In this document: positions 1 through 50,071 of the stretch, in pieces
Layout of the letters: each line of letters begins with the position of its first letter
Position numbering within the stretch: the stretch's first letter is position 1
Source: a virus
DNA: 50,071 nt
IMG/VR virus record: IMGVR_UViG_3300001598_000010
Location: 1-50,071 of that record
Strand: one strand, 5' to 3'
The notes under the pieces: generated by a model
Told to the model about the DNA's origin: nothing
Databases searched by the model: none
Seen by the model: only the letters and a program-made list of their open reading frames with translations
Position numbers and translations under genes: made by a program

Positions 1-99
1 AATGCCGGGAATCCGTGACCCTTGATGAACGCCACGAACCCTTTTAGGATGTTGATAATCTTTTCCATCGTACTGAAAATTTTGTGTTTGCAACACAAA
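1..99. repeat. Left copy of the 99-bp terminal direct repeat (contig circularisation overlap)
   Basis: Bases 1-99 are identical to 49973-50071 on hand comparison. Confidence 0.9.
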
Positions 100-2469: not shown

Positions 2470-3498
2470 TTACAGCTTGGAAAGCCATTGTTCCCATATC
2501 TGGGTTGCCACATTAGCCATCATCACCGGCGGCACACTCATTCCGCAAATGTAATTGGGTCTTTGTCCACAAAAATTGTAGTCCAAAGGGAATGTCGAAC
2601 CAAGCACGATTTCACGGTTTGAAAGGAAGCACGGTTTGTGATAGGCAATCGTTGCTTCTTGCTTGGCGGCAATAGTTGAAAGCACCTTGTCCGGCTTCTG
2701 CAAGGAACAATTGAAATACTTATCTTCGCCAAAGCACCGCTTTGAAATGTCCGCAAGGGATGCATCTTCATATTCGCGCCTATCCCAACATTTCCTGTAT
2801 GATGGCGGGATTGGATAACTTTCATCATCATCCATAAATTTCCGGTAGAAGATTGGTTCTTCATCGAATTCCATTTCAAATTTCGGCAAGGTTTCAAACA
2901 AGTTCACTTGTGTGAGAAACGGCGTTGCCAGATCCTTTCGCAAGCACACGAAGAACACCCGTTCCCGCCTTTGAGGAACACCCATTGTGGATGCGTTCAA
3001 CAGATAGTGTTGGCAATAATAACCGGCGGCATCGAATTCTTCGTGTATCTTCCGGACATATTCAATCGCGTTTCCCATCAGTAAACCTTTCACATTTTCG
3101 GCAACAACGACCTTTGGTTGAAGTTTCTTCGCCAGATCAATGAAATCAAAGAACAATGTGTCCAGAACTTGTTCCGCTTGCCCCTCTCTGAAATGCTTCA
3201 TCTTACCCCACGCATCTTCGCGGTCACCGGCAATCGAAAAGGTTGAGCAAGGCGGCGAACCGTCAAGGATGTCCAACTGATAAAGTTCTTCCGGCAAGTC
3301 ATCACGCATCTTGAAAGTCTGAATCGGTTCAAGGAACGGCATTCTTGGGTTCAGGTTCTGACAATAGGCGTACATCATTCGCTTGTCGATTTCATTGCAA
3401 CCAATAACATCGTAACTTGCTAATTTATAACCCATTGATGACCCCCCCACAAGAAAAACACGAAAATACCTTGCCCCGGTCTTTGGTGAATTTTGCAT
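2470..3498 (-). CDS. DNA (cytosine-5)-methyltransferase, orphan
   Basis: 342 aa. Motif IV GSPPCSTFS, motif VI ENVKGLL and motif VIII QRRERVFFV are present. No adjacent restriction endonuclease gene is recognisable. Confidence 0.85.
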   Translation of the reverse strand: MQNSPKTGARYFRVFLVGGSSMGYKLASYDVIGCNEIDKRMMYAYCQNLNPRMPFLEPIQTFKMRDDLPEELYQLDILDGSPPCSTFSIAGDREDAWGKMKHFREGQAEQVLDTLFFDFIDLAKKLQPKVVVAENVKGLLMGNAIEYVRKIHEEFDAAGYYCQHYLLNASTMGVPQRRERVFFVCLRKDLATPFLTQVNLFETLPKFEMEFDEEPIFYRKFMDDDESYPIPPSYRKCWDRREYEDASLADISKRCFGEDKYFNCSLQKPDKVLSTIAAKQEATIAYHKPCFLSNREIVLGSTFPLDYNFCGQRPNYICGMSVPPVMMANVATQIWEQWLSKL

Positions 3499-6626: not shown

Positions 6627-7142
6627 TTAACGAATCAACAAAACATCATTGAACAATTCGATAAAGGTCTTTCCGAATTCGGTTGCGCGTTTTTCCGTCT
6701 TGAAGCAAAGCCGAGAACCGACATACGCATACGTAAACGACCACGAACTATTCGAATTCGAGTAAACGAACCCCGCAGCACCCTTGTCATATACAAACCA
6801 AGGAAACCACTTGTATTGTCTGGAATCAGACCAATCCGGAACGAACCCATCTTCCTTATTCCACGCTTCCGCGATTGTGAACAGCTTTTCAAGTGCTTCA
6901 AGTGCCTTGTCGTGCTGATGGTTCTTGTCACCTTTATCAAGTCCAAGATATTTCCTTGCGGATTCATAGTTCGGAATTGTCGTTTCGATGACATCTTCAC
7001 ATTCAACGGTGAATATTGATGGCGAACCGGCTTCCGGGTCGTTGGAATCAATCTCTATCTGGATGATTGAAGCGATCTGTTTCTTGTCGAATGTTTCGGC
7101 AACCACTTCATCATTTTCATTCTTGATGATATATTTTTTCAT
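6627..7142 (-). CDS. Small early-region protein carrying a second DGR variable repeat (VR2)
   Basis: 171 aa. The C-terminal part AAGFVYSNSNSSWSFTYAYVGSRLCF is encoded by a 77-bp match to the DGR template repeat. Confidence 0.8.
   Translation of the reverse strand: MKKYIIKNENDEVVAETFDKKQIASIIQIEIDSNDPEAGSPSIFTVECEDVIETTIPNYESARKYLGLDKGDKNHQHDKALEALEKLFTIAEAWNKEDGFVPDWSDSRQYKWFPWFVYDKGAAGFVYSNSNSSWSFTYAYVGSRLCFKTEKRATEFGKTFIELFNDVLLIR
6703..6779 (-). repeat. DGR variable repeat 2 (VR2), remote from the RT
   Basis: Hand alignment to TR positions 19657-19733 gives 77 bp with 10 mismatches, all where the TR has adenine on the coding (minus) strand. Confidence 0.85.
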
Positions 7143-8363: not shown

Positions 8364-9110
8364 TTAGAATGGCATATTACTGAATGATAAGACAAGACCT
8401 TTGTCTGCAACGAACACCGGCTTTCCGATTTCCGTTTCAATGTCGCGCTTGAATTCCTTGGCGTTGGAATTTCCATCGGAAAGGTGAATCAAGACAATGT
8501 TCCGGACATCGGTCAGATCGTTTGCTTTGAGGATTTCCAGACAGGTTTCAAAGCTGCAATGGCTTTGAAGCGTGCGGTTGCGCATCTTCATCGGAATTCT
8601 TCCATTCGCAACATTGGCATCAAGGATGTCTTTGCGGTAGTTGCATTCCAGAAGAATGTGGTTCAGTCCGGAAAAGGTGAAATGCAGATAATATGTGTCC
8701 GTTGCGAAAAGGCAAGTTCCCATTTCTGGGTGATTGATAAGAAATCCGAATGGTTCTTTGGCATCGTGCTTCGCATCGAAAGGGATGACACGGAATCTTC
8801 CGATTTTTTCCGCGACTTTCGATGTGATCTGATGACACATCCGGTTCTGGGAAATGTTCAACGCTTCCGATGTTCCCCTTGACATATAACAAGGGATCTG
8901 GGCGGAAAGGCACTTTTCAACCTCTCTGGCGTGGTCTTGGTGTTCGTGTGATACAATTACACCATTGATGCGTGAAATGTCGAAATTCAAGGCTTTTTTG
9001 ACCTCAATGAACGGCACACCGCATTCAATCACCAGGCATTCACTTCCATTGTCCAGAAGATAGCAATTGCCTTTTGAACTTGACCCCAAAACTTTCAATT
9101 CCATAACCAT
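8364..9110 (-). CDS. Metallo-beta-lactamase-fold hydrolase/nuclease
   Basis: 248 aa. Canonical HxHxDH motif (SHEHQDH). Adjacent to RecT and the SbcC-like ATPase. Confidence 0.75.
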   Translation of the reverse strand: MVMELKVLGSSSKGNCYLLDNGSECLVIECGVPFIEVKKALNFDISRINGVIVSHEHQDHAREVEKCLSAQIPCYMSRGTSEALNISQNRMCHQITSKVAEKIGRFRVIPFDAKHDAKEPFGFLINHPEMGTCLFATDTYYLHFTFSGLNHILLECNYRKDILDANVANGRIPMKMRNRTLQSHCSFETCLEILKANDLTDVRNIVLIHLSDGNSNAKEFKRDIETEIGKPVFVADKGLVLSFSNMPF

Positions 9111-13935: not shown

Positions 13936-15213
13936 ATGAAGATTGACCGGACAACAAAATTCTATCTGCACAAGCGCAAGACGGGAGAAACACGCAACCT
14001 TACAATCCGGATGCGCATCACCTTGCGCGGACAACGACCTTTGGATTTTTCCACCGACTACCGCGTTGATCTGGAAGATTGGGATGCGCAACACCAGATG
14101 GTCTTGCCGACAAATCCGAATGCGGATGAAGCGAATTCCACAATCACCGAATGGCGTGCTATCCTGAAAGACATCTTCGCACGATATGAACTGATTGAAA
14201 AGCGCGTTCCGATGCCCGGCGAAGTCAAGGATCTGTTCAATGATACCATCGGAAGAAAAACCATCCTGAACGAAAGGTTTCCAGAACCGACAAAGGAATT
14301 CTTTGAAGTGTTCGACTTGTTTTGCCGGGATATGGGTGAACAAAACCAATGGACTGATTCAACCCACGAAAAGTTTTCTTCGCTTCGCGGACACATCCGG
14401 GAATTTGACCCATACATTTGTTTTGAAACCATCAATGAAAAGAAGATGGTCGAATATCTTGCCTATCTGAACCGGAAGCAATTGCGGAACACAACAATTG
14501 CCAAGAACCTTGGATTCTTCCGGTGGTTCTTGCGTTGGGCGGCTGATAACGGATATTACAACGGTGATGTCCACGAAAAATTCAAGCCGAAATTGAAAGG
14601 CACGAATGTGGAATCACACCAGATCATATATTGCACCCAAGAAGAACTTCGCAAATTGGAAGAACACCAATTCACGGCAAAGGAAGCTGCACTTGAACGG
14701 GTGCGGGATGTCTTTTGTTTCTGTTGCTTCACCGGCTTGCGATATTCCGATGTTGCCAAGTTGAAGCGTTCCGACATCAAGCAAGGCTTCATCAAGGTGA
14801 TGACAAGAAAGACCGATGACGGGTTGATGATTGAATTGAACCGGCATTCGCAAGCCATTCTGGATAAGTACCGGGAACAAAGGTTTCCATCCGATCTGGC
14901 GTTGCCTGTCATATCCAACGAGAAGATGAACCAACATTTGAAAGTTCTTGGTCAGGTGTGCGGTCTTGATGACCCAACAAGGGTGATATACTTCCAAGGC
15001 AAGAAGCGTTTTGAAGATGTCGTTCCGAAATGGTCTGTCCTGACCACACATTGCGCAAGAAGAACATTTGTTGTCACCGCGCTTCAATTGGGCATTCCGG
15101 CGGAAGTCATAATGAAGTGGACAGGACATTCAAGGTATGAAGCAATGAAGCCGTATGCCGCCATTGTTGATGAACTGAAAAAGAAGTCAATGTCAAAGTT
15201 TGATGAAATATGA
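13936..15213 (+). CDS. int: Tyrosine site-specific integrase
   Basis: 425 aa. An N-terminal arm-binding/SAM-like region. Catalytic-domain motifs GLRYSDV, HCARRTF (HxxR) and a C-terminal GHSRYEAMKPY. Confidence 0.9.
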   Translation: MKIDRTTKFYLHKRKTGETRNLTIRMRITLRGQRPLDFSTDYRVDLEDWDAQHQMVLPTNPNADEANSTITEWRAILKDIFARYELIEKRVPMPGEVKDLFNDTIGRKTILNERFPEPTKEFFEVFDLFCRDMGEQNQWTDSTHEKFSSLRGHIREFDPYICFETINEKKMVEYLAYLNRKQLRNTTIAKNLGFFRWFLRWAADNGYYNGDVHEKFKPKLKGTNVESHQIIYCTQEELRKLEEHQFTAKEAALERVRDVFCFCCFTGLRYSDVAKLKRSDIKQGFIKVMTRKTDDGLMIELNRHSQAILDKYREQRFPSDLALPVISNEKMNQHLKVLGQVCGLDDPTRVIYFQGKKRFEDVVPKWSVLTTHCARRTFVVTALQLGIPAEVIMKWTGHSRYEAMKPYAAIVDELKKKSMSKFDEI

Positions 15214-15496: not shown

Positions 15497-15736
15497 TTCC
15501 GGACACTTCGCCAAAACTTGCAATTTCGTGCAAGGCTTGCAAGTTCTTGGAAGATGACTTCATTTTGTAGTCAACCCGTGACAGATCTTCACGGTTGAAA
15601 GCGTTTCAACTTGTAACGGTTTCCCATCCGGATTTCCTTTGCAAATAAAAAATCGCGCTTGGGCGCGTTCCGATGCGGTTTCCCATCCGTTCCGTCACAT
15701 AAGCTGCAAATAAGATTCTGTTCCAATTCCGGTGAT

Positions 15737-15799
15737 AAGTGTGCCAGAAATGCCCCAAAGTGTGCTAAATATCCGGATAAGCGTGCCAAAACACACTTA
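15737..15799. repeat. Three tandem 21-bp-phased repeats (AAGYGTGCYAAA core)
   Basis: Units start at 15737, 15758 and 15779 (aagtgtgccagaaa, aagtgtgctaaata, aagcgtgccaaaac). Confidence 0.7.
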
Positions 15800-15903
15800 T
15801 TGTGCAACATACTTGCATAATAAGGGTGATGGAATATGCTTGACCATTTCCCCGGCATCACGAAAATGGTTGCCGAACATTTTCCCGGCATCAGGAAGAT
15901 GAT

Positions 15904-15939
15904 ATAAAAAGACCCGGACATCGAAAGGACATCCGGGTC
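15904..15939 (-). terminator. Rho-independent terminator after the lysis cassette
   Basis: 8-bp stem GACCCGGA / TCCGGGTC, followed on the minus strand by TTTTTAT. It lies directly after the stop of ORF 15944-16543. Confidence 0.55.
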
Positions 15940-15943
15940 AATC

Positions 15944-18108: not shown

Positions 18109-18495
18109 TTAAACATCAAGTGTCCGGTCAAGCAATTCGGCAACATCCTTGCGGAAAGTAAGGAATTCACGATATTCGGCAACAGCCTGTTCGTTTTCCT
18201 CAATTCCAAGAATGTGTGAATTGTAGGCATTGACAAGTGCGAATTCTTCCGATTCGTTCAGGACTGAACGCAGAATGGCGTGCTTGCAAGCATCCTTGGT
18301 GATTTCGTTCCAAACGATGACTTTATAACACTTCCAACCCACCTGAACGGGTTCTGTTGCGCCCTCTGGTGTGTTGTATTCCGCTTCGATGTTGAACCGG
18401 TAATAATAGAAACCCTGAACATCCCTTTCGGTGATGGCGGGTCTGCCGTGCGCCATATCATAATGGGCATTTGGCTCTAACGAATCTAATCTCAT
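18109..18495 (-). CDS. Hypothetical protein immediately downstream of the DGR reverse transcriptase
   Basis: 128 aa, or 115 aa from the ATG at 18456, which lies 1 nt after the RT stop. Acidic and not obviously helical-bundle. No motif recognised. Confidence 0.55.
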   Translation of the reverse strand: MRLDSLEPNAHYDMAHGRPAITERDVQGFYYYRFNIEAEYNTPEGATEPVQVGWKCYKVIVWNEITKDACKHAILRSVLNESEEFALVNAYNSHILGIEENEQAVAEYREFLTFRKDVAELLDRTLDV

Positions 18496-19489
18496 AAGGA
18501 AATGATTTTTGAAGTTTGTTAATCAGGTTCTTCGAATTGCCGTATTTGCACCACCCCCACCAAGAACAAATGTTCTGTTTGTAGGCTTTTTCTTCGACAA
18601 GAACCTTTGATCTGTTCAGCATTGCCACCCGGCGGCAAAGTGCTTGTTTGATACCTTTCCGCAACAATGTATATCCGTGAAAGAACACATAACCCAAGAA
18701 GTCAACACCCCTTGAATCGGTCGGAAAGACTTGGTAATTCTTCTTGACTTTCAGTTTCAGGTTCACGCGCATATATTCACGGATGTCGTGCATCAAGGCG
18801 TGAAGTTCTTCTTTGGTGGATGCGAAGATGGTTATATCATCCGCATACCTGAAAAAGTATTTGACCCGCTTGACCTCTTTCAGCCAATGGTCAAAATATG
18901 TCAAGTAAAGATTTGCGAAGTATTGTGAAAGATAGTTCCCAATGGGAACGCCACTTTCAACGGAATCAATGATTTCATCCAGAAGATTCAAAAGGCGTTC
19001 ATCCTTAATCTTTCTTCGCAAGATCTGTTTCAGGATGGTATGGTCAATTGACGGATAAAACTTCTTGATGTCCAATTTAAGACAGTATCTTGTTCCCTCT
19101 GGGTCTTTCTTCAAGGCAAAGCGCACATCCCTTGCGCAAGCGTGGATTCCACGATTCTTGATGCAAGAATATGTGTTCGCCACGAACAATTTGACCCAGA
19201 TGGGTTCAAGAACATTCATAATGGCGTGATGCAAGATTCTGTCCGGATAATACGGCAAGCGGAAAATCAAGCGTTCCTTGGGTTCGAAAATTGTGAAAGT
19301 CTGGTATTTTGAAGTGTGGTATGTTCCATTTACCAACGCTTCGTGCAAAGCAACAAGATTGGCTTCACGATTGCGGTCGTGAATCCTCACGCCAATGGAA
19401 TTCTTCTTGTTCTTGCGTGCTTTGGCATCCGCAAGTTCCAAGTTTTCCATTGACACGATCTGGTCAAATAAGCCATTCAATCTTTTCAT
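18458..19489 (-). CDS. DGR-type reverse transcriptase
   Basis: 343 aa. RT motifs include IGNYLSQYFANLYL (the DGR-typical SQxxAN context) and RYADDITIF (YxDD). A template repeat lies 167 bp upstream. Confidence 0.92.
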   Translation of the reverse strand: MKRLNGLFDQIVSMENLELADAKARKNKKNSIGVRIHDRNREANLVALHEALVNGTYHTSKYQTFTIFEPKERLIFRLPYYPDRILHHAIMNVLEPIWVKLFVANTYSCIKNRGIHACARDVRFALKKDPEGTRYCLKLDIKKFYPSIDHTILKQILRRKIKDERLLNLLDEIIDSVESGVPIGNYLSQYFANLYLTYFDHWLKEVKRVKYFFRYADDITIFASTKEELHALMHDIREYMRVNLKLKVKKNYQVFPTDSRGVDFLGYVFFHGYTLLRKGIKQALCRRVAMLNRSKVLVEEKAYKQNICSWWGWCKYGNSKNLINKLQKSFPYEIRFVRAKCPL

Positions 19490-19773
19490 TCCTTTGCTTG
19501 AATATTAGGATTCTTCGGTCTTTCAACCTACCAAAACCGTTTTTCGATATGTACTTTTTTGCCCTTGTGGTTTTTCACACAAGACATTCGCCACCCATTG
19601 TGGCGTTTTTGTGGCACGGTTTCCGGTGCAAGGTTCTTCCCAGATCATATATTTCCAAGCATAGCTGAGAACCGATATTCGCATTCGTATTCGACCACGA
19701 ATTATTCGAATTCGAGTAAACGAACCCCGCATTCGCACCATTATTCGCATTACCGCTGAAACACAAGGCACGC
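19490..19773 (-). ncRNA. Putative DGR template RNA (TR plus structured spacer leading into the RT gene)
   Basis: TR at 19657-19773, followed by a 167-nt non-coding spacer. The spacer has stem-loops CGCCAC/GTGGCG (19589-19605) and CTTGTG/CACAAG (19564-19583). Confidence 0.55.
19657..19773 (-). repeat. DGR template repeat (TR)
   Basis: 117 bp. In the VR frame it reads ...CFSGNANNGANAGFVYSNSNNSWSNTNANIGSQLCL, rich in AAT (Asn) codons. It matches VR1 over 117 bp and VR2 over 77 bp. Confidence 0.9.
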
Positions 19774-19853
19774 AACACCGGACAACCAATTCATTCATAC
19801 TTTCAAATTTTCTCTTTCCACATTCGTATTATGTCGTGCTTCGCACTCCCGGA

Positions 19854-21173
19854 TTACGGAATAAAGCAAAGCCGAGAACCGAAATACGCAGACGTACCCG
19901 ACCACGAATAATACGAATTCGAGTAAACGAACCCCGCATCCGCACCAGAATGCGCATAACCGCCGAAACACAAGGCACGCGAAGCCACACCAGAATCCGG
20001 GATGGCTGTATAGAAGTAATCACAGAAGTATGTGGTTGAACCGCCACCGATTTCCTTTGGCATAATGTCACCATTATCATCAAACAGAATGGATTTGATG
20101 TAACCGGAACTTCTTGGAAGATTACCGATGAAAGTGTAACCGGTCAATTCGGATGCGCTTGTGTTGAACTTTGACGGGTCATCACAAGTATAGAACTTCG
20201 ATTCGCCATCATCACCGGCGGCAATCAGAATCTTCGTTCCGTCAACCCACTTGAAGATATGACCGAAAGGATTTTCCACACCGCGATATAACGGAACACT
20301 TGTGGTGTATGCGCCACCATAAGCGGTTGCCTGTTCTTCATTAAAGGAGAACGAAACGACACCAGACTTGTTGCCAAGGCTGTTGGTATATCCGCACGGG
20401 ATGAACGGATTATAACTGTTGTAAGTGTTCCATTTCGTTGAAATGATGTTGGACACACCATCACCCAAGCCGCCCTGACGGTAACCCTCTGGTGTAAGGG
20501 ATGCGTTGAATGCTTTCTGTGAATGGAATGTGCAATATTCAACGGCGAAAAGCCAGAACAACTTGCGTTCCTGTTGATAAAGCATCATATTCCACTTGCT
20601 TTCACCGCTTGCGCCACGATTGCGGGCATAAGTGCGGAAGTTGGTCGGCGAAATAGATGTTGCCGGTTTTCCGAGAAGTGAACGATAAGTTTCATCCCAT
20701 CCGGAAGTGTTGTTTCCACCGCGAAAATCGGTGGTCAGATTGACAACGGAAGCCATCTTGTTGTTGGAACGCTGCACGGTTGCTTCATACGCGCCAACAT
20801 AATCCTTTGACCACTTCTTGAAGCCGGGCAAAGCATAAGTTGACATCAAGCAACGCTGCACATCACCATCCTGTTCGAAACGAACATACATATCCGGAAT
20901 TTCGACCATTACTTGTCCATCAGTTCCATCAAGCACGGCATCCGCGCCGGTCGTGGTCTTTGTGGAATCGTTGGCATCCAGATAATAGTTGACAGATCCG
21001 TCATCGTTGAGCAAGCAACGGCGCATCTGTGACTGAATCGGCAATGTGTTGTGCAAAACGGTCTTTCCTATTCTGGTGGGTTCACCAGAAGATTGGACAC
21101 TCCATTGAATGCCGTAATAGGCATCATAAGGAAAAGCGGGTCTTGTTGACCCTACACCAATGACAAGTCCCAT
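19854..21173 (-). CDS. DGR target 1: tail-fibre/receptor-binding-like protein with a C-terminal variable C-type-lectin-like region
   Basis: 439 aa. The C-terminus ...GGYAHSGADAGFVYSNSYYSWSGTSAYFGSRLCFIP is encoded by VR1. It lies at the distal end of the tail module. Confidence 0.85.
   Translation of the reverse strand: MGLVIGVGSTRPAFPYDAYYGIQWSVQSSGEPTRIGKTVLHNTLPIQSQMRRCLLNDDGSVNYYLDANDSTKTTTGADAVLDGTDGQVMVEIPDMYVRFEQDGDVQRCLMSTYALPGFKKWSKDYVGAYEATVQRSNNKMASVVNLTTDFRGGNNTSGWDETYRSLLGKPATSISPTNFRTYARNRGASGESKWNMMLYQQERKLFWLFAVEYCTFHSQKAFNASLTPEGYRQGGLGDGVSNIISTKWNTYNSYNPFIPCGYTNSLGNKSGVVSFSFNEEQATAYGGAYTTSVPLYRGVENPFGHIFKWVDGTKILIAAGDDGESKFYTCDDPSKFNTSASELTGYTFIGNLPRSSGYIKSILFDDNGDIMPKEIGGGSTTYFCDYFYTAIPDSGVASRALCFGGYAHSGADAGFVYSNSYYSWSGTSAYFGSRLCFIP
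19864..19980 (-). repeat. DGR variable repeat 1 (VR1)
   Basis: Hand alignment to the TR gives 117 bp with 16 mismatches, all at TR adenines on the coding strand. Confidence 0.9.
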
Positions 21174-22012: not shown

Positions 22013-25000
22013 TTATAGTGCAACCCATCCAGATCCACGATTGATCTGGACACCGTTTGCCCTTGTGATACGAAGTCCAATTGCGCTTCCGGATGATGAT
22101 AATCCTTGCAAAAGAATTGTCGGCGTGCCACTATCAAGCGCGAACACGGCGGAAAAACTGTTGCCAAGATGGATTGCAATGCCATTCGCGCCTATCTGGA
22201 TTGATTGAAGCGTTGCGGATGTAATGATGACATTGCCGGTTGATTCGTTCTGGAATGATACGGAAATCCAATTGCCATACCAATCTTCTGGGTCAACCCA
22301 CCATTCCCAAGATGCGCTTACCTTGATTTCGTAAGTACCCGCGCCCAAAGTCAAAGTTCCGCCATTGTATGTTATGCCCTTTGAACCTTGGTTTTGCGCC
22401 AACACAACCCGTGAACCGGATGATTGATTTATGACATAGATAAACATCGAATTCATATCAATCGTGCCGCCATAGTACCCTTGTTGTTCATCTTCCGAAA
22501 TCTCAATTCTTGGGATATTGACTTGTGTTCCGGCTGATTGAACCGTGAATGTACAAATGGACATTTCGCCCTGGTCTTGACCGCTTTGTCCTTTTTGCGA
22601 ATAAGTGTCACCCATCCACGATTGTTTCAATGGGAACGATGCGGTTGGTGTTCCGATGTCAATATCTTCACCCTTGACCAACAGCTTCTGGTTGTTGTTG
22701 GCATCGTACATTGTCATTTCGTTGTTCTGGATGATGATTCGCTTTCCGGTTTCGGCGGTTCGCAGAATACGGATAACGGCGTTATCAATCACAGCTTCGG
22801 CGGCAAACAAGAATCCGGTCGCAATGTTCTCATAACTTGCACCGAACTGTTCCCAATATGAAGTATTGGTTGGCAATACGCTGACAAAAGGTGATTGTGG
22901 CGCATCCGGTCTGGCACGATAATACGCGCCTTGGTATTTGACCACATCACAACGATAGTCGCACCCATAATATGTGGCGGTGCTTGCATATTCACCGCGA
23001 TATGGTGATGATGGTGATTTACCATCCTGACCATCTTGCCCGTCTTGTCCATCCTGTCCGTCACGACCATCGTTTCCGTTGTTTCCATCTTGTCCGGAAA
23101 GAAGAACCGGTGTTGTCCAAGTTCCGGCAACGCCACTTGCAGAAACAACCGCGCAAGTCATCCAAGTTCTTGGTGTGTCAAGAATCTTCACGACAATCTT
23201 GTCATCGTTGGCAACCGATGAACCATCCTTGGTGTAACCGACATAAAAGAAATGCGTTCCGGCGGATTCAATGTTGATTGTCACAAGCGCACTTTGCGTT
23301 CCGGACACCCTTGCAAGGTAACTTGATGTACTGTGCGCCGAATCATCAAGATTGCAGATATATCCGAAATCATAATTGGCTTCTGATGATGCGAAGATTC
23401 GAACCATCACTTTGGTGTTCGCCTTGGTGGTCACGATCTGAATCTTTTCCCAAGTTGCACCGGAATGACCGATGGCGTTTGATGTCAAGGTCTTTCCATT
23501 GACAACCCAATCACCGGTGTATGTAGGCGAAACGATGTCACAGATCGGTGGCGCATCATTCCATCCGGTCGGAATCGGTGATGTGCTTGTCGGCTTTGCC
23601 GGTTGCGATTCGGCGGCTTGGAACACAAAGGAAGTATGTGAACCATCCGTTCCATCTGTTCCATCCGTTCCGTCTTGTCCATCTTCACCAACGATTTTTA
23701 TTGCCGAACTCCAAGACCCAGAACCGACCCTTTCACGCATATACTTGTCACCACTCTGGAACGAAGAATGCCAAGAAGAACTTCCGTTCACCGAAAATTG
23801 GACTTCGATGCTTGAACCATCCGTTCCATTAGAACCGGGTTCACCTTTTTCGCCCTTGATTTTGCTGATTTCCCAAGAACCCCAAGTTCCGTTCTTGCAC
23901 TTGCGCATTGCCATCCAGATGTCGGAAGATGTTGCGGTGTTGTGCCAATTGCTTGGGTTGGATGTAGGGTTGCCCGGATTGGAAGAAACGGCGGAATATT
24001 CAAAGTCAATGTCAGCCGTGTCCGTTGCCACTTGTGGAGTTGTCCACGCTGCCTGTTGCGGTGTCAGTCCGTCACTTGTGAAGATTCTGGTTGACATCCA
24101 CAATTGCGCTTCACCTGATGGAACGCCATCACTCCACCCGGATGGAACGGGTGAAGCATACGAACCGCCCGTTGGCGTTGATGGCGTGGTGTTAGTGCGC
24201 TTGAAAACAATGGACTTGAATGTTGACTGTCCATCTGCACCATCTTCACCATCTTGACCATCTTCGCCGGGGTCACCCTTGTCACCTTTCGCGCCACCGG
24301 ATGCATACACTTTCCAATATGCCGTTTCGGTCACCGCGTGACCCTTGGTTGGCGTTGAATTGATGTACATATATGTTGCCGATGTCGTTCCATCAGAATA
24401 TGTCACGGTGTCACCGGAATAATACATCGTTTGCGCGTTCCAATCACCGCGATAGACCGGCATATCATAGGCTTCGCCAGATCCGGACACAATCTTGACA
24501 TTGCGCATTGAGAACTGACCGTTCCGGGTCACATTCCAATCAATGTAGCAAGAATCATTGCCGAACCGGATTTTGTTTTCATCCAAATCAATGTAATTCT
24601 TTCCATCGGCACTTTGGATTCTTCCGGTCGTGATGTAACGCCCGTTAATCATCGTGAAGCCGTATGACAAGGAAATGTCACGGATTCCCAATTCGGAATC
24701 AACGGCGTGAAGAACGCCAATCCAGAAATGGTAATAATCCGGATCTGATTCGCAAGGGATCTGTTGCGTACTGAACAGAATCGTTCCGGCATTGGTTGAC
24801 CTTGAACATTTCGCATAAATATAGAACGCATCCGAATCTTTCTGGAATGTGAATGTATTGTTCGCCAATGTCCACGACACCGCCTGTTGTTCATCAATGG
24901 TGTAGTGAACAAGCGTGCCGCCGGTGACTTTCATTGAATTCTTGTTGCCGCCGAAATTCGGTTCAAAGACAGTTCCCACCAATCCAAACTGCATTGACTT

Positions 25001-26656
25001 TGCGCCCACAGACAGAAGCAATGTGTCAATACTGTTCGGCTTGATTTTATCGGTGTAATAATCACCCTCTGGGTCGAACACCATATTCAACAATTCACGC
25101 GAAGAACGCCAATTGGCACGCGCCCTTGTTGGGTCTTGCAAGTTGTTGATGTTGATGATGTCCTGAATGTCCTGAATGTCGGAAATCACCCTTGTTGTGA
25201 TGCTTGTCGAAACGGTGTCCGAAATGGTCAGCACATATTCATAAGCATCAAGGATGTTGCGCGAAATTTGCTGAACCCTGACAGACTTGTTGACACCGAC
25301 ATCGGAATCTTGGATTGGAATGTAATCACCCGGATGGAAAACATTCGTAACAGATTCTTCCGAAACGCCAATCAGTTCTTCCAGATACGCTTTTGCGATT
25401 GAAAGCGCATATTTGACCAAAGGCTGACAATTTGTGGCAAGATATTCTTCGCCCTTTTCTTCAAGCAAATCTTCCGCATCTTCGACATAGGAATCCGGCA
25501 AGGCAACATCAATCAACTTATATGTGTCACCGGCTTTGATCTGAAACGCGGCTGATGAAGCGGATGGGAATTGGTCACCCCTTTCATCGGTCTGCTTGCA
25601 AAGCGTGAATGTCTTGGTTGTGTGGTCATAGGAATGAATGTCGAATTCATATCCGGCAAGGTTGCCAGAATTGAAGTGAACCTTGGCAGATACGCCCGGC
25701 AGAAGATAAAGCGTGTTGCCGCTTGAATCCTTTGCGTTCAAGTCGAACATTCCCGTGTCAACGAACTGCAACACATTGTCAGCAACAATGGATGTCACAT
25801 TGCCGCCGAATGTCGGCTTGATGTCATCGAAATACTTTGTTGCTTCAAAAATGCCGTATGCCGTTTTTGCGGCTGCGTTCTCCAAGTATGACTGTCCTTT
25901 GCTCTTTCCCGGTAAGCAAAGGCGGTTTGCCCTGTATTTGGTTGTAATGTTCTGGGTTGAACCGAACACTTTCAACCTTGTCACGATATTGGAAGAATCA
26001 ACATTCAGGCGTTGAAGATTGTACAGTCCGCCCGCGTTTCCGAACTGAAATGTGTAAGGGAACACCGAACCGATTGATGTCTGGAAATTGATGACATTGA
26101 CACCGTTGGTTGTAACGATGTCGAATTCCACCTTGAATTCCTGACAAAGCTGTTGAAGAACGGAAAGGCAATTCGCACTTTCTCCGAAAGTCAAGCATCT
26201 GTCCGCATCCGTTTCCGGACAAGTGCCAACCGCCCAAGAACGAGCAAACACACGGTTGGCATTGGCAACAAGGACATTGGCGAACCGTTCCAGATCCCCG
26301 GTCAATGAATCCGCCTGAATGTCTTGAAGCTGACAAGAAGTGGTGTCAACGGTCAAGTCGTATGTCACGCGCATCAGGTCATATTGGATGCCCTCAAATT
26401 CACATTCGTATTGCAGAAGATGCGTTTTGGTCTTGGTAATCTTGGGCAACCGGTTCATCTTGTAGGTGCGACCGAATATGCTTACCGAATCACCAATCCC
26501 CAAGTTCAAAGCAACCGCCGATTTGACGGTCACTTTGACCAGATCATCACCGTTCAATGTCCATTCTTGCCTTGCGGACACAATGGTGCAAGGCAAGTTC
26601 TTGTTGGACAATTGAACAGTTGAACCGTTGGGTTTGTTAACTGTTATTTGCTTCAT
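22013..26656 (-). CDS. Large tail tip / host-specificity protein with four collagen-like G-X-Y segments
   Basis: 1547 aa from the ATG at 26656 (the track start at 26677 is TTG). Its position after the Dit-like genes fits a Tal/gpJ-like role. G-X-Y runs lie at 24230-24295, 23816-23854, 23642-23689 and 23021-23095. Confidence 0.8.
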   Translation of the reverse strand: MKQITVNKPNGSTVQLSNKNLPCTIVSARQEWTLNGDDLVKVTVKSAVALNLGIGDSVSIFGRTYKMNRLPKITKTKTHLLQYECEFEGIQYDLMRVTYDLTVDTTSCQLQDIQADSLTGDLERFANVLVANANRVFARSWAVGTCPETDADRCLTFGESANCLSVLQQLCQEFKVEFDIVTTNGVNVINFQTSIGSVFPYTFQFGNAGGLYNLQRLNVDSSNIVTRLKVFGSTQNITTKYRANRLCLPGKSKGQSYLENAAAKTAYGIFEATKYFDDIKPTFGGNVTSIVADNVLQFVDTGMFDLNAKDSSGNTLYLLPGVSAKVHFNSGNLAGYEFDIHSYDHTTKTFTLCKQTDERGDQFPSASSAAFQIKAGDTYKLIDVALPDSYVEDAEDLLEEKGEEYLATNCQPLVKYALSIAKAYLEELIGVSEESVTNVFHPGDYIPIQDSDVGVNKSVRVQQISRNILDAYEYVLTISDTVSTSITTRVISDIQDIQDIININNLQDPTRARANWRSSRELLNMVFDPEGDYYTDKIKPNSIDTLLLSVGAKSMQFGLVGTVFEPNFGGNKNSMKVTGGTLVHYTIDEQQAVSWTLANNTFTFQKDSDAFYIYAKCSRSTNAGTILFSTQQIPCESDPDYYHFWIGVLHAVDSELGIRDISLSYGFTMINGRYITTGRIQSADGKNYIDLDENKIRFGNDSCYIDWNVTRNGQFSMRNVKIVSGSGEAYDMPVYRGDWNAQTMYYSGDTVTYSDGTTSATYMYINSTPTKGHAVTETAYWKVYASGGAKGDKGDPGEDGQDGEDGADGQSTFKSIVFKRTNTTPSTPTGGSYASPVPSGWSDGVPSGEAQLWMSTRIFTSDGLTPQQAAWTTPQVATDTADIDFEYSAVSSNPGNPTSNPSNWHNTATSSDIWMAMRKCKNGTWGSWEISKIKGEKGEPGSNGTDGSSIEVQFSVNGSSSWHSSFQSGDKYMRERVGSGSWSSAIKIVGEDGQDGTDGTDGTDGSHTSFVFQAAESQPAKPTSTSPIPTGWNDAPPICDIVSPTYTGDWVVNGKTLTSNAIGHSGATWEKIQIVTTKANTKVMVRIFASSEANYDFGYICNLDDSAHSTSSYLARVSGTQSALVTINIESAGTHFFYVGYTKDGSSVANDDKIVVKILDTPRTWMTCAVVSASGVAGTWTTPVLLSGQDGNNGNDGRDGQDGQDGQDGQDGKSPSSPYRGEYASTATYYGCDYRCDVVKYQGAYYRARPDAPQSPFVSVLPTNTSYWEQFGASYENIATGFLFAAEAVIDNAVIRILRTAETGKRIIIQNNEMTMYDANNNQKLLVKGEDIDIGTPTASFPLKQSWMGDTYSQKGQSGQDQGEMSICTFTVQSAGTQVNIPRIEISEDEQQGYYGGTIDMNSMFIYVINQSSGSRVVLAQNQGSKGITYNGGTLTLGAGTYEIKVSASWEWWVDPEDWYGNWISVSFQNESTGNVIITSATLQSIQIGANGIAIHLGNSFSAVFALDSGTPTILLQGLSSSGSAIGLRITRANGVQINRGSGWVAL

Positions 26657-27077
26657 AGATGGATGTGTCTGGTTCAATAAATGTCAATGTGAAAGTGCCG
26701 ACATTCTGCCCGTCACAGAATGTTTTCTTCAACGCTGAAACACTTTTCAGATAGACCAAGAATGACAATGTTTTTGCGCTTGAACCGCTTCCGATGGTTA
26801 CGGTCAAACTCTTGGTGGTTGTCTGTTCAAATATCCCAACGAATGTGTTGAAGTTGGTCGCAAGCGCACCGGCGGAATCAGCCTTGATGAAGCAAGACAG
26901 TTCAATCGTGCGCACATCGAATGTCGCGTGCGCCAGATCCGGAACATTGCCCGATTCGCCCGGATATTCAAAGATTTCAATCTTTTTGGGCGGCAAGCCA
27001 ATTATTCCGTTGCTTCCGGACACAAAAACGCCGTGTGTCTTGAAGTTTACCGAATTGAATGTATATGTTATGTCCAT
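26637..27077 (-). CDS. Distal-tail-protein (Dit)-like protein
   Basis: 146 aa from the ATG at 27077. Called from its position between the tape measure and the tail tip gene. It is a paralogue of the C-terminal half of ORF 27087-28313. Confidence 0.5.
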   Translation of the reverse strand: MDITYTFNSVNFKTHGVFVSGSNGIIGLPPKKIEIFEYPGESGNVPDLAHATFDVRTIELSCFIKADSAGALATNFNTFVGIFEQTTTKSLTVTIGSGSSAKTLSFLVYLKSVSALKKTFCDGQNVGTFTLTFIEPDTSIYEANNS

Positions 27078-49915: not shown

Positions 49916-50068
49916 TCAGAAGATTATGTTGAACAGAAGAACGGCAATTGCCGCAACGATGATTCCGACAACAATGCCGGGAATCCGTGACCCTTGATGA
50001 ACGCCACGAACCCTTTTAGGATGTTGATAATCTTTTCCATCGTACTGAAAATTTTGTGTTTGCAACAC
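49916..50068 (-). CDS. Possible small membrane protein (50 aa, GTG start) at the circular junction; the frame is ambiguous
   Basis: This frame ends in the TM helix IPGIVVGIIVAAIAVLLFNIIF, 4 nt before the ParB-like ATG. A competing ATG-started 38-aa frame (49924-50040, MEKIINILKGFVAFIKG...) covers the same DNA. Confidence 0.3.
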   Translation of the reverse strand: MLQTQNFQYDGKDYQHPKRVRGVHQGSRIPGIVVGIIVAAIAVLLFNIIF

Positions 50069-50071
50069 AAA
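49973..50071. repeat. Right copy of the 99-bp terminal direct repeat
   Basis: Identical to bases 1-99. Confidence 0.9.

Follow-up and report, generated by a model that had tools for sequence, protein, structure and literature searches.

Organization of the locus

The DNA analyzed was positions 1 to 50,071 of the IMG/VR virus record IMGVR_UViG_3300001598_000010, and this whole stretch of 50,071 nt is called the window below. On its minus strand the window carries a reverse transcriptase (RT) gene, a short non-coding template repeat (TR) and two protein genes that each contain a variable repeat (VR) matching the TR. From the sequence alone, an earlier note had interpreted the RT gene, the TR and the repeat in the neighboring tail gene as a diversity-generating retroelement (DGR), and the analysis reported here supported this interpretation. 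The following features make up the element (coordinates are those of the window):

18458-19489, minus strand: DGR reverse transcriptase gene, 343 aa, isoelectric point (pI) 9.7 (Pfam RVT_1, 1.8e-20; phrog_1423 'Reverse transcriptase', 2.9e-121)
19657-19773, minus strand: TR, 117 nt, non-coding, 26 adenines
19864-19980, minus strand: VR1, the last 39 codons of the tail protein, 16 A-to-N differences from the TR
19854-21173, minus strand: target gene 1, 439-aa tail-associated protein (phrog_5302 'tail protein', 8.8e-119)
6703-6777, minus strand: VR2, 75 nt corresponding to TR positions 42-116 (0-based), 8 mismatches
6627-7142, minus strand: target gene 2, p171, 171 aa, acidic, pI 4.9 (phrog_11581, unknown function, 4.6e-19)

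The open reading frames (ORFs) of the RT and of target gene 1 had the coordinates, strand and lengths given in the earlier note, and the gap of 167 nt by which the TR lies upstream of the RT gene on the minus strand was likewise confirmed. VR1 ends 7 nt from the stop codon of the 439-aa ORF, and the TR lies 90 nt downstream of VR1, 83 nt past that stop codon. The span up to position 21173 that had been assigned to the element proved right for this adjacent cassette and missed VR2, the third copy of the repeat.

Template repeat and VR1

The TR and VR1 were aligned computationally without gaps, which gave 101 identities in 117 positions and 16 mismatches, all 16 at TR adenines and none at any other TR base, exactly as had been counted by hand from the letters. 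The changes from TR to VR1 comprised 8 A>T, 5 A>G and 3 A>C, altering 16 of the 26 adenines in the TR; were 16 mismatches placed at random among the 117 positions, all of them would fall on these 26 adenines with a probability of 2.6e-13. Similarity between the two repeats broke off sharply at both edges. Read in the frame of VR1, the mutable codons of the TR are ten AAT codons plus AGC, TAC, ACG and ATC, a make-up by which diversification of VR1 cannot produce a stop codon. The diversification potential of VR1 is ~1.5e14 protein variants (ten AAT and four four-way codons, with the 3'-end codons excluded).

A second target gene

A repeat search of the whole window returned a third repeat copy at 6703-6819, of which only 6703-6777 (VR2) is homologous to the TR. 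Compared with the 3' 75 nt of the TR, VR2 had its mismatches at TR adenines in 8 of 8 cases (chance, 1.4e-6). It encodes residues ~122-146 of p171, and 24 codons remain after it, so that VR2 departs from the usual VR position in lying inside an ORF and not at its 3' end. Its potential was put at ~7e8 protein variants (six AAT and three four-way TR codons). When the whole window was searched with a 17-nt 3'-end probe allowing up to 3 mismatches, the TR, VR1 and VR2 were found and no further VR.

The 90% cluster of p171 has 18 members, which differ at TR-adenine codons; 15 of the 18 were aligned for analysis of variants. At the nine residues encoded by TR-adenine codons (127, 129, 131, 132, 136, 137, 138, 140 and 141) a mean of 6.6 residue types was observed, and the other 162 columns had a mean of 1.2. 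All variant residues at the nine columns were attainable through adenine-only substitution of the TR codon. In two relatives for which both loci were fetched, VR2 was compared with the diverged TR of its own contig over the same 75 nt and had 12 mismatches, every one at A, which shows conservation of the two-target design.

These data bear on a different origin for VR2, as the drifting leftover of a recombination or gene conversion event between the 3' end of the tail gene and an unrelated early gene. Drift would not be expected to place every mismatch at a TR adenine, to confine hypervariability among the variants to TR-adenine codons with residues reachable by A-only change, to leave VR2 with the same invariant 3' end as VR1, or to make the VR2 of relatives follow the diverged TR of their own contigs. 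Such an origin is nevertheless suggested by the coverage of only 75 nt at the 3' end of the TR, by the position inside the ORF, by the lack of a recognizable hairpin downstream, and by a database protein (P0128) that joins the p171 N-terminus to the tail protein end, which shows that sequences of the two loci can become mixed up or recombine. On balance, VR2 as a leftover was considered highly improbable, and it is treated here as a true target.

P0128 itself is a 149-aa protein in which the N-terminus of p171 is fused at GSRLCF to the 'IP*' of the 439-aa protein C-terminus, and it arose either through chimeric assembly across the VR1/VR2 repeat or through true recombination between the two targets.

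The neighbors of p171 are recombination genes (SbcC-like, RecT, metallo-beta-lactamase hydrolase) on one side and genes for a replication initiator and a DnaC-like loader on the other. Its homologues numbered 2699, with 57 IMG/VR loci, about half of them within the same replication/recombination module. The position in this module argues for an early, non-virion protein. No hydrophobic N-terminal leader was seen by eye, a Pfam search with p171 returned no family, its AlphaFold2 model was poor, and the fold matches of that model in BFVD were uninformative.

Reverse transcriptase

Both RT motifs named in the earlier note, IGNYLSQYFANLYL and RYADD (containing the catalytic YADD), were found in the 343-aa ORF. 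The protein also carries IGNYLSQ, which fits the DGR signature [I/V/L]GxxxSQ, the corresponding signature being QGxxxSP in group II and retroviral RTs (PMC7826257). Among PDB sequences the best match was 8ub7_A (9.8e-48, 166 bits, over residues 2-329), followed by a group II intron RT (7.7e-21, 78 bits) and a retron-type RT (1.5e-17). The entry 8ub7_A was identified as the Bordetella phage RT, bRT, because its D138/D215/D216 numbering agrees with that of the active-site residues D138, D215 and D216 in the cryo-electron microscopy preprint on the bRT-Avd-RNA complex (bioRxiv 10.1101/2023.10.23.563531). The bRT residues R74 and I181, which promote adenine mutagenesis (PMC7826257), have as their aligned counterparts R73 of the window RT and the Ile in its IGNYLSQ motif. 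The closest RTs in GenBank phages belonged to crAss-like phages, at 51-61% identity.

Assignment of the enzyme to another class (a retron RT, a group II intron maturase or a Drt/Abi defense RT, with a repeat unrelated to it) was weighed on the same matches. The NCBIfam scan placed group_II_RT_mat (122 bits) and Drt3a (84 bits) first, and a crAss homologue has been labeled 'retron-type' by GenBank annotators; all NCBIfam matches, however, lay far under the curated cut-offs of 200-600 bits, and no DGR-RT model was among them. The score against bRT was 166 bits as opposed to 78 for the group II RT, IGxxxSQ stands in place of QGxxxSP, a search of Rfam gave no intron RNA or retron msr/msd match, and a TR stands at a constant distance from the RT gene in over 60 loci, a linkage that is not coincidental. 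Grouping with retron or group II intron RTs, which the earlier note had named as a result that would speak against a DGR, was thus not observed: the closest solved relative is the RT of the DGR prototype. Membership of another RT class was given practically no credence.

3' ends of the repeats

The TR differs from both VRs at its 3' end by a pattern that recurs in relatives. The three ends are:

19657-19667, minus strand: TR 3' 11 nt, CAGCTATGCTT, resembling IMH*, the TR counterpart of the initiation of mutagenic homing (IMH) sequence
19864-19874, minus strand: VR1 3' 11 nt, CGGCTTTGCTT, invariant IMH-like end
6703-6713, minus strand: VR2 3' 11 nt, CGGCTTTGCTT, identical to the VR1 end

The VR terminus CGGCTTTGC(TT) was present in both VRs of the window and in all 64 relatives from which a TR/VR pair was recovered, and the TR termini of the window and these relatives read CAGC(TAT/GTT/AAT/TAA)GC. 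In frame, the differences between TR and VR ends in the window are CAG>CGG (Gln to Arg) and CTA>CTT (synonymous). The synonymous site is always T in the VRs, so protein-level selection cannot maintain that base. In 7 loci a G in the TR stands opposite T in the VR, a non-adenine difference that is not producible by A-mutagenized copying. Because of the fixed synonymous site and the non-adenine difference, the last 11 nt of the VR appear not to be overwritten, and by sequence comparison the VR and TR 3' ends behave as an IMH and IMH* pair would. Nothing resembling the G/C 14-mer of BPP-1 was found at the VR 3' ends.

Structure of the template RNA and target-site hairpins

RNA structure was assessed in an alignment of 22 diverse loci, extending from 25 nt upstream of the TR through the RT start codon, for which a consensus was computed with RNAalifold. 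The structured elements are:

19490-19656, minus strand: spacer between TR and RT, conserved structured RNA (RNAalifold and pair counts)
19776-19787, minus strand: flank duplex, 5' strand, GGUUGUCCGGUG, 2 nt upstream of the TR 5' boundary
19618-19628, minus strand: flank duplex, 3' strand, CACCGGAAACC, in the spacer
19836-19846, minus strand: GC hairpin GTGC-GAA-GCAC, 17 nt downstream of VR1

In the consensus structure 95.8% of cells were paired, compared with 82.6% in column shuffles, and none of 500 shuffles reached the observed values. Compensatory changes were present in 23 of the 40 consensus pairs, and the covariation signal was lost on sliding the partners by one to three columns. The duplex between the flanks encloses the TR and had 99.2% of cells paired, with compensatory changes in 7 of 11 pairs. 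In BPP-1 the avd:Sp 'cPRT Stop' duplex marks the end of cDNA synthesis (bioRxiv 10.1101/2023.10.23.563531), and the flank duplex of the window appears analogous to it. Other elements of the spacer are a closing helix (GUGCC/GGCA), two variable hairpins (19590-19604 and 19564-19583) and a composite hairpin (19508-19538). A conserved CAAGCA just before the RT start (19495-19500) can pair with the TR 3' end, UGCUUG (19656-19661). A local helix between the TR 3' end and the spacer (CAGCUAU:AUAGUUG), seen by eye in relatives, was rejected as a conserved element since it is not conserved in the window.

In BPP-1, target recognition involves a hairpin or cruciform that closely follows the VR (PMC3240598). 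The GC hairpin downstream of VR1 is a possible counterpart; GCGAAGC or GNRA-loop hairpins with differing stems recur downstream of VR1 in many relatives.

Natural variants and activity

All three proteins (the RT, the 439-aa protein and p171) are represented in the public collection. Relatives of the RT were found on at least 598 IMG/VR contigs, the best being 75% identical. Cassette layout was surveyed in 80 fetched loci, from 64 of which a long ungapped TR/VR pair was recovered. All 64 had the order VR, gap, TR, spacer, RT, with mismatches nearly all at TR adenines. In a more distant subfamily (L056-L080) the gap of ~480 nt between VR and TR encodes a conserved 112-aa protein that by eye does not resemble Avd and may serve as an accessory specific to that lineage; no homologue of it was found within the window.

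The earlier note had proposed mapping reads to see whether VR1 polymorphism is confined to TR-adenine positions. Assembled natural variants were used in place of read mapping, and across these contigs VR1 heterogeneity was seen at TR-adenine positions while the TR was invariant. In the 90% cluster of the window RT, one identical RT (P0139) occurs on four contigs from different samples (L139-L142; ERZ27279233, SRR11880812, ERZ27279226 and ERZ27279228), whose TRs are identical to each other and 116/117 identical to that of the window. The three of these contigs that hold VR1 had 14, 20 and 16 differences between VR1 and TR, all but one at TR adenines, and the three VR1s differ from one another. 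The 439-aa protein differs from its only cluster mate by changes in VR1 adenine codons together with L401W and L295S.

It was considered whether the element is a fossil, that is, whether VR1 and VR2 were once diversified and the cassette is now inert in this genome, with the observed differences as frozen relics. Decay of this kind has precedent, as incomplete or decayed cassettes were reported in 73% of the crAss-like phage genomes examined (PMC7290462), and the case for present-day activity in the window genome rests on relatives. The cassette is nonetheless whole, in that the RT ORF with its catalytic motifs, the three repeats (TR, VR1 and VR2), the IMH-like ends and all RNA helices are intact; phages with a closely related RT and a 116/117 TR carry different VRs across samples, and the 18 clustered p171 proteins differ at TR-adenine codons. 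The occurrence of different VRs beside near-identical TR and RT sequences, together with the p171 variants, means that diversification is ongoing in the lineage. An inert relic was accordingly judged very unlikely.

Tail protein

The 439-aa protein is a probable receptor-binding protein. Its gene directly follows that of a 1554-aa collagen-repeat tail fiber protein. An AlphaFold2 model was obtained with a predicted template modeling score (pTM) of 0.74, and comparison of this model with BFVD gave cr55_1 'Tail fiber protein' (E 1e-32, TM 0.77); many of the other BFVD matches were labeled 'tail collar fiber', and TvpA-like or CotH-like labels also occurred. The description of the gene as tail-fiber-like is borne out by its position after the fiber gene, by phrog_5302 and by these structural matches to crAss-like tail fibers. 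Its homologues numbered at least 5431, and some of their 90% clusters hold 50-119 members. By analogy with known DGR targets, a C-type lectin (or Ig) fold would be expected for the VR domains, and the tail collar fiber, TvpA-like and CotH-like labels of the BFVD matches lend this indirect support.

Accessory proteins

Avd is present in ~74% of DGRs. Among 40 small ORFs of the window no Pfam Avd-family match was found at E below about 0.002. Absence of Avd does not exclude DGR membership, because it is a known trait of lineage 3. One small ORF adjoins the cassette:

18109-18495, minus strand: p128, 128-aa acidic ORF, pI 4.8, overlapping the RT stop codon by 38 nt

This ORF was conserved at the same position in ~120 of 161 loci, with an overlap of -34 nt kept in most related loci (~80), and a Pfam search with p128 gave no match. 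It was rejected as a DGR accessory protein since it occurs only with the tail-protein type of target and tracks the phage backbone. It is absent from the RT loci of cr55_1 and environmental Bacteroidota, its weak crAss-like homologues immediately precede the holin gene, and in IAS virus the annotation of the 10 kb displayed around the homologue includes no RT. It is taken to be a phage gene and not part of the DGR. The CH1 accessory protein of lineage 3a DGRs is 160-169 aa and acidic (PMC5758913).

Genome context

The cassette lies in a ~50-kb temperate Bacteroidales siphophage-like genome. An exact direct repeat of 99 nt is present at the ends of the window (1-99 and 49973-50071), from which it follows that the window constitutes a complete phage genome of 49,972 bp, either circular or terminally redundant. 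Other genes noted outside the cassette are:

13936-15213, plus strand: tyrosine integrase (the L141 homologue has Arm-DNA-bind_5 and Phage_int_SAM_5 domains)
22013-26677, minus strand: 1554-aa tail fiber protein with several collagen-like G-x-y repeat tracts
8364-9110, minus strand: metallo-beta-lactamase-fold hydrolase adjoining RecT (the L141 homologue has a weak Anti-Pycsar_Apyc1 Pfam match)
2470-3498, minus strand: C-5 cytosine DNA methyltransferase in the early region (Pfam DNA_methylase, 1.9e-42)

In a 118-kb contig (L139), a near-identical phage was found integrated beside lspA, a dksA-like gene and ileS. The attachment site attP is probably located at ~15511-15943, since 15510 is the point at which similarity to a circular relative begins again. 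Related phages occur as prophages in Alistipes, Prevotella, Muribaculaceae, Parabacteroides and Bacteroides pyogenes (DSM 20611). A megablast search of GenBank phages with a 7-kb segment surrounding the cassette returned no nucleotide match, no Rfam family was matched anywhere in the window, and no tRNA gene was found in it.

The collagen-like tracts of the 1554-aa fiber give rise to a family of direct repeats with a 9-nt period (D1; repeats at 23002-24269). The hydrolase may be an anti-defense nuclease, and the methyltransferase probably serves restriction protection.

Interpretation and proposed mechanism

The element is, with high confidence, an Avd-less Bacteroides/crAss lineage 3-type DGR, active or very recently active, in a temperate Bacteroidales phage. 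Several observations weigh against this conclusion or parts of it and are gathered here. The AlphaFold2 per-residue confidence (pLDDT) was <50 across both VR regions, and searches of the VR-bearing domains against the PDB by Foldseek and by profile gave no match. The UGCUUG/CAAGCA helix had one covarying pair only (in 3 sequences) and would form a pseudoknot with the flank duplex. The predicted energy of the hairpin downstream of VR1 was no better than that of shuffles (z -0.96), DNA folding revealed no convincing hairpin downstream of VR2, and the regions 3' of both VRs, whether in the window or in relatives, folded no better than shuffles. Non-adenine changes were found among the variants: W134G (TGG>GGG) in the p171 variant P0131, T>G in the VR1 of L141, and L401W in P0136 at the 5' edge of VR1. 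These rare non-adenine VR changes may stem from ordinary mutation or from occasional RT errors at bases other than adenine. Activity of the DGR in the window's own genome is probable, judging by the sequences of close relatives.

Under the proposed mechanism, the cassette would give a transcript of ~310 nt, consisting of a 12-nt 5' flank, the 117-nt TR and the 167-nt spacer, in which the two flanks of the TR would pair and several hairpins would form in the spacer. The 343-aa RT would copy the TR into cDNA, misincorporating opposite adenines, and the cDNA would then replace the homologous stretch in two genes on the same strand. In the first target this would be the C-terminal 39 codons of the 439-aa protein over the full TR length (VR1), and in the second an internal-to-C-terminal stretch of p171 over the 3' 75 nt of the TR only (VR2). 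The last 11 nt of each VR would never be overwritten and would mark the recipient, in the manner of IMH as opposed to IMH*. The priming of the cDNA, its route of integration and independence of Avd are parts of this scheme that we infer, and host-range switching would be the role of diversifying the tail protein.

Two further proposals are offered tentatively and are considered rather unlikely to hold. The first is that p171 is a non-virion, intracellular hypervariable binding protein. It may be expressed alongside the early replication and recombination genes while being diversified by the TR of the tail protein, and it may act as an 'adaptive' counter-defense or host-takeover factor that follows variable host proteins. 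The second and separate proposal is that the Avd-less lineage positions its template through RNA alone, for which it may use the flank duplex and the possible pseudoknot.

Among prokaryotes, targeted protein hypermutation is known in nature only from DGRs, for which phages of gut Bacteroidales form the richest reservoir. The element described here is a new member of a known, abundant and already classified kind of DGR; what the present analysis adds to the earlier note is the VR2 target, the fixed 3' ends, the structured RNA and the finding of no Avd. It adds little in principle and stands as a clean and complete representative of the abundant Avd-less type, no reconstituted member of which was found in the literature covered. 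Its usefulness lies in the defined boundaries (the 12-nt 5' flank, the 117-nt TR and the 11-nt end that would never be overwritten), in an RNA supported by covariation that yields testable predictions on how reverse transcription is primed and stopped without Avd, and in a conserved second target outside the virion module, a rare handle on roles of phage DGRs beyond host-range switching.

Comparison with known DGRs

Lineage 3 DGRs are characterized by the order target-TR-RT, the lack of avd and hosts of the Bacteroides group (PMC5758913; Wu et al. 2018, NAR 46:11), and non-adjacent second targets inside the same prophage have been recorded for phage DGRs (PMC5758913). The element of the window agreed with lineage 3 in layout, in lacking a detectable Avd and in host, and a closely related RT, from the same 90% cluster, is found in an integrated prophage. 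With lineage 3/3a it shares the one-strand target-TR-RT order, absence of avd, Bacteroidales hosts, association with phages, a non-adjacent second target, and a VR motif ending G-S-R-L-C-F, of a class not alignable with the BPP-1 VR. The RT of crAss LMMB has been assigned to lineage 3, and the LMMB layout is TG-VR(IMH)-TR(IMH*)-RT, where TG is the target gene, without avd (PMC7290462). The window element would fit Avd-less lineage 3, the link being the 51% sequence identity of its RT to that of crAss LMMB.

The DGRs of crAss-like phages have the same layout without avd, with RTs 51-61% identical to that of the window and, in cr55_1, a target 38-42% identical with TM 0.77. They differ in residing in ~100-kb Crassvirales genomes, as opposed to the ~50-kb integrase-bearing temperate backbone of the window, and p171 is a second target in the window.

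With the BPP-1 cassette (mtd-avd-TR-brt), the element shares adenine-specific transfer from TR to VR into the C-terminus of a tail receptor-binding protein, a homologous RT (E 1e-47) with the signature motif and equivalents of R74 and I181, pairing of the TR flanks, a structured spacer and fixed differences between the 3' ends of VR and TR. BPP-1 requires Avd for cDNA synthesis, whereas the window element is without Avd; BPP-1 has a 14-bp G/C IMH, a strong cruciform and one target, whereas the window has neither such an IMH nor a strong cruciform, and has two targets and a different class of VR.

The closest parallels to the two-target design are the DGRs of Quimbyvirus (PMC8008677) and of the tentaclin study (PMC10743442), which, like that of the window, combine one TR with a target in the structural module and a distal non-structural target, and show adenine-only variation across near-identical genomes. 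Quimbyvirus ('Quimbyviridae', Benler et al. 2021) has a genome of ~75 kb, an RT whose coding sequence is divided among three frames, and a second target encoded on the opposite strand within a defense-like island, whereas p171 belongs to the replication/recombination module. In tentaclins an N-terminal lectin domain precedes Ig domains; p171, in contrast, is small and acidic, with its VR near but not at the C-terminus.

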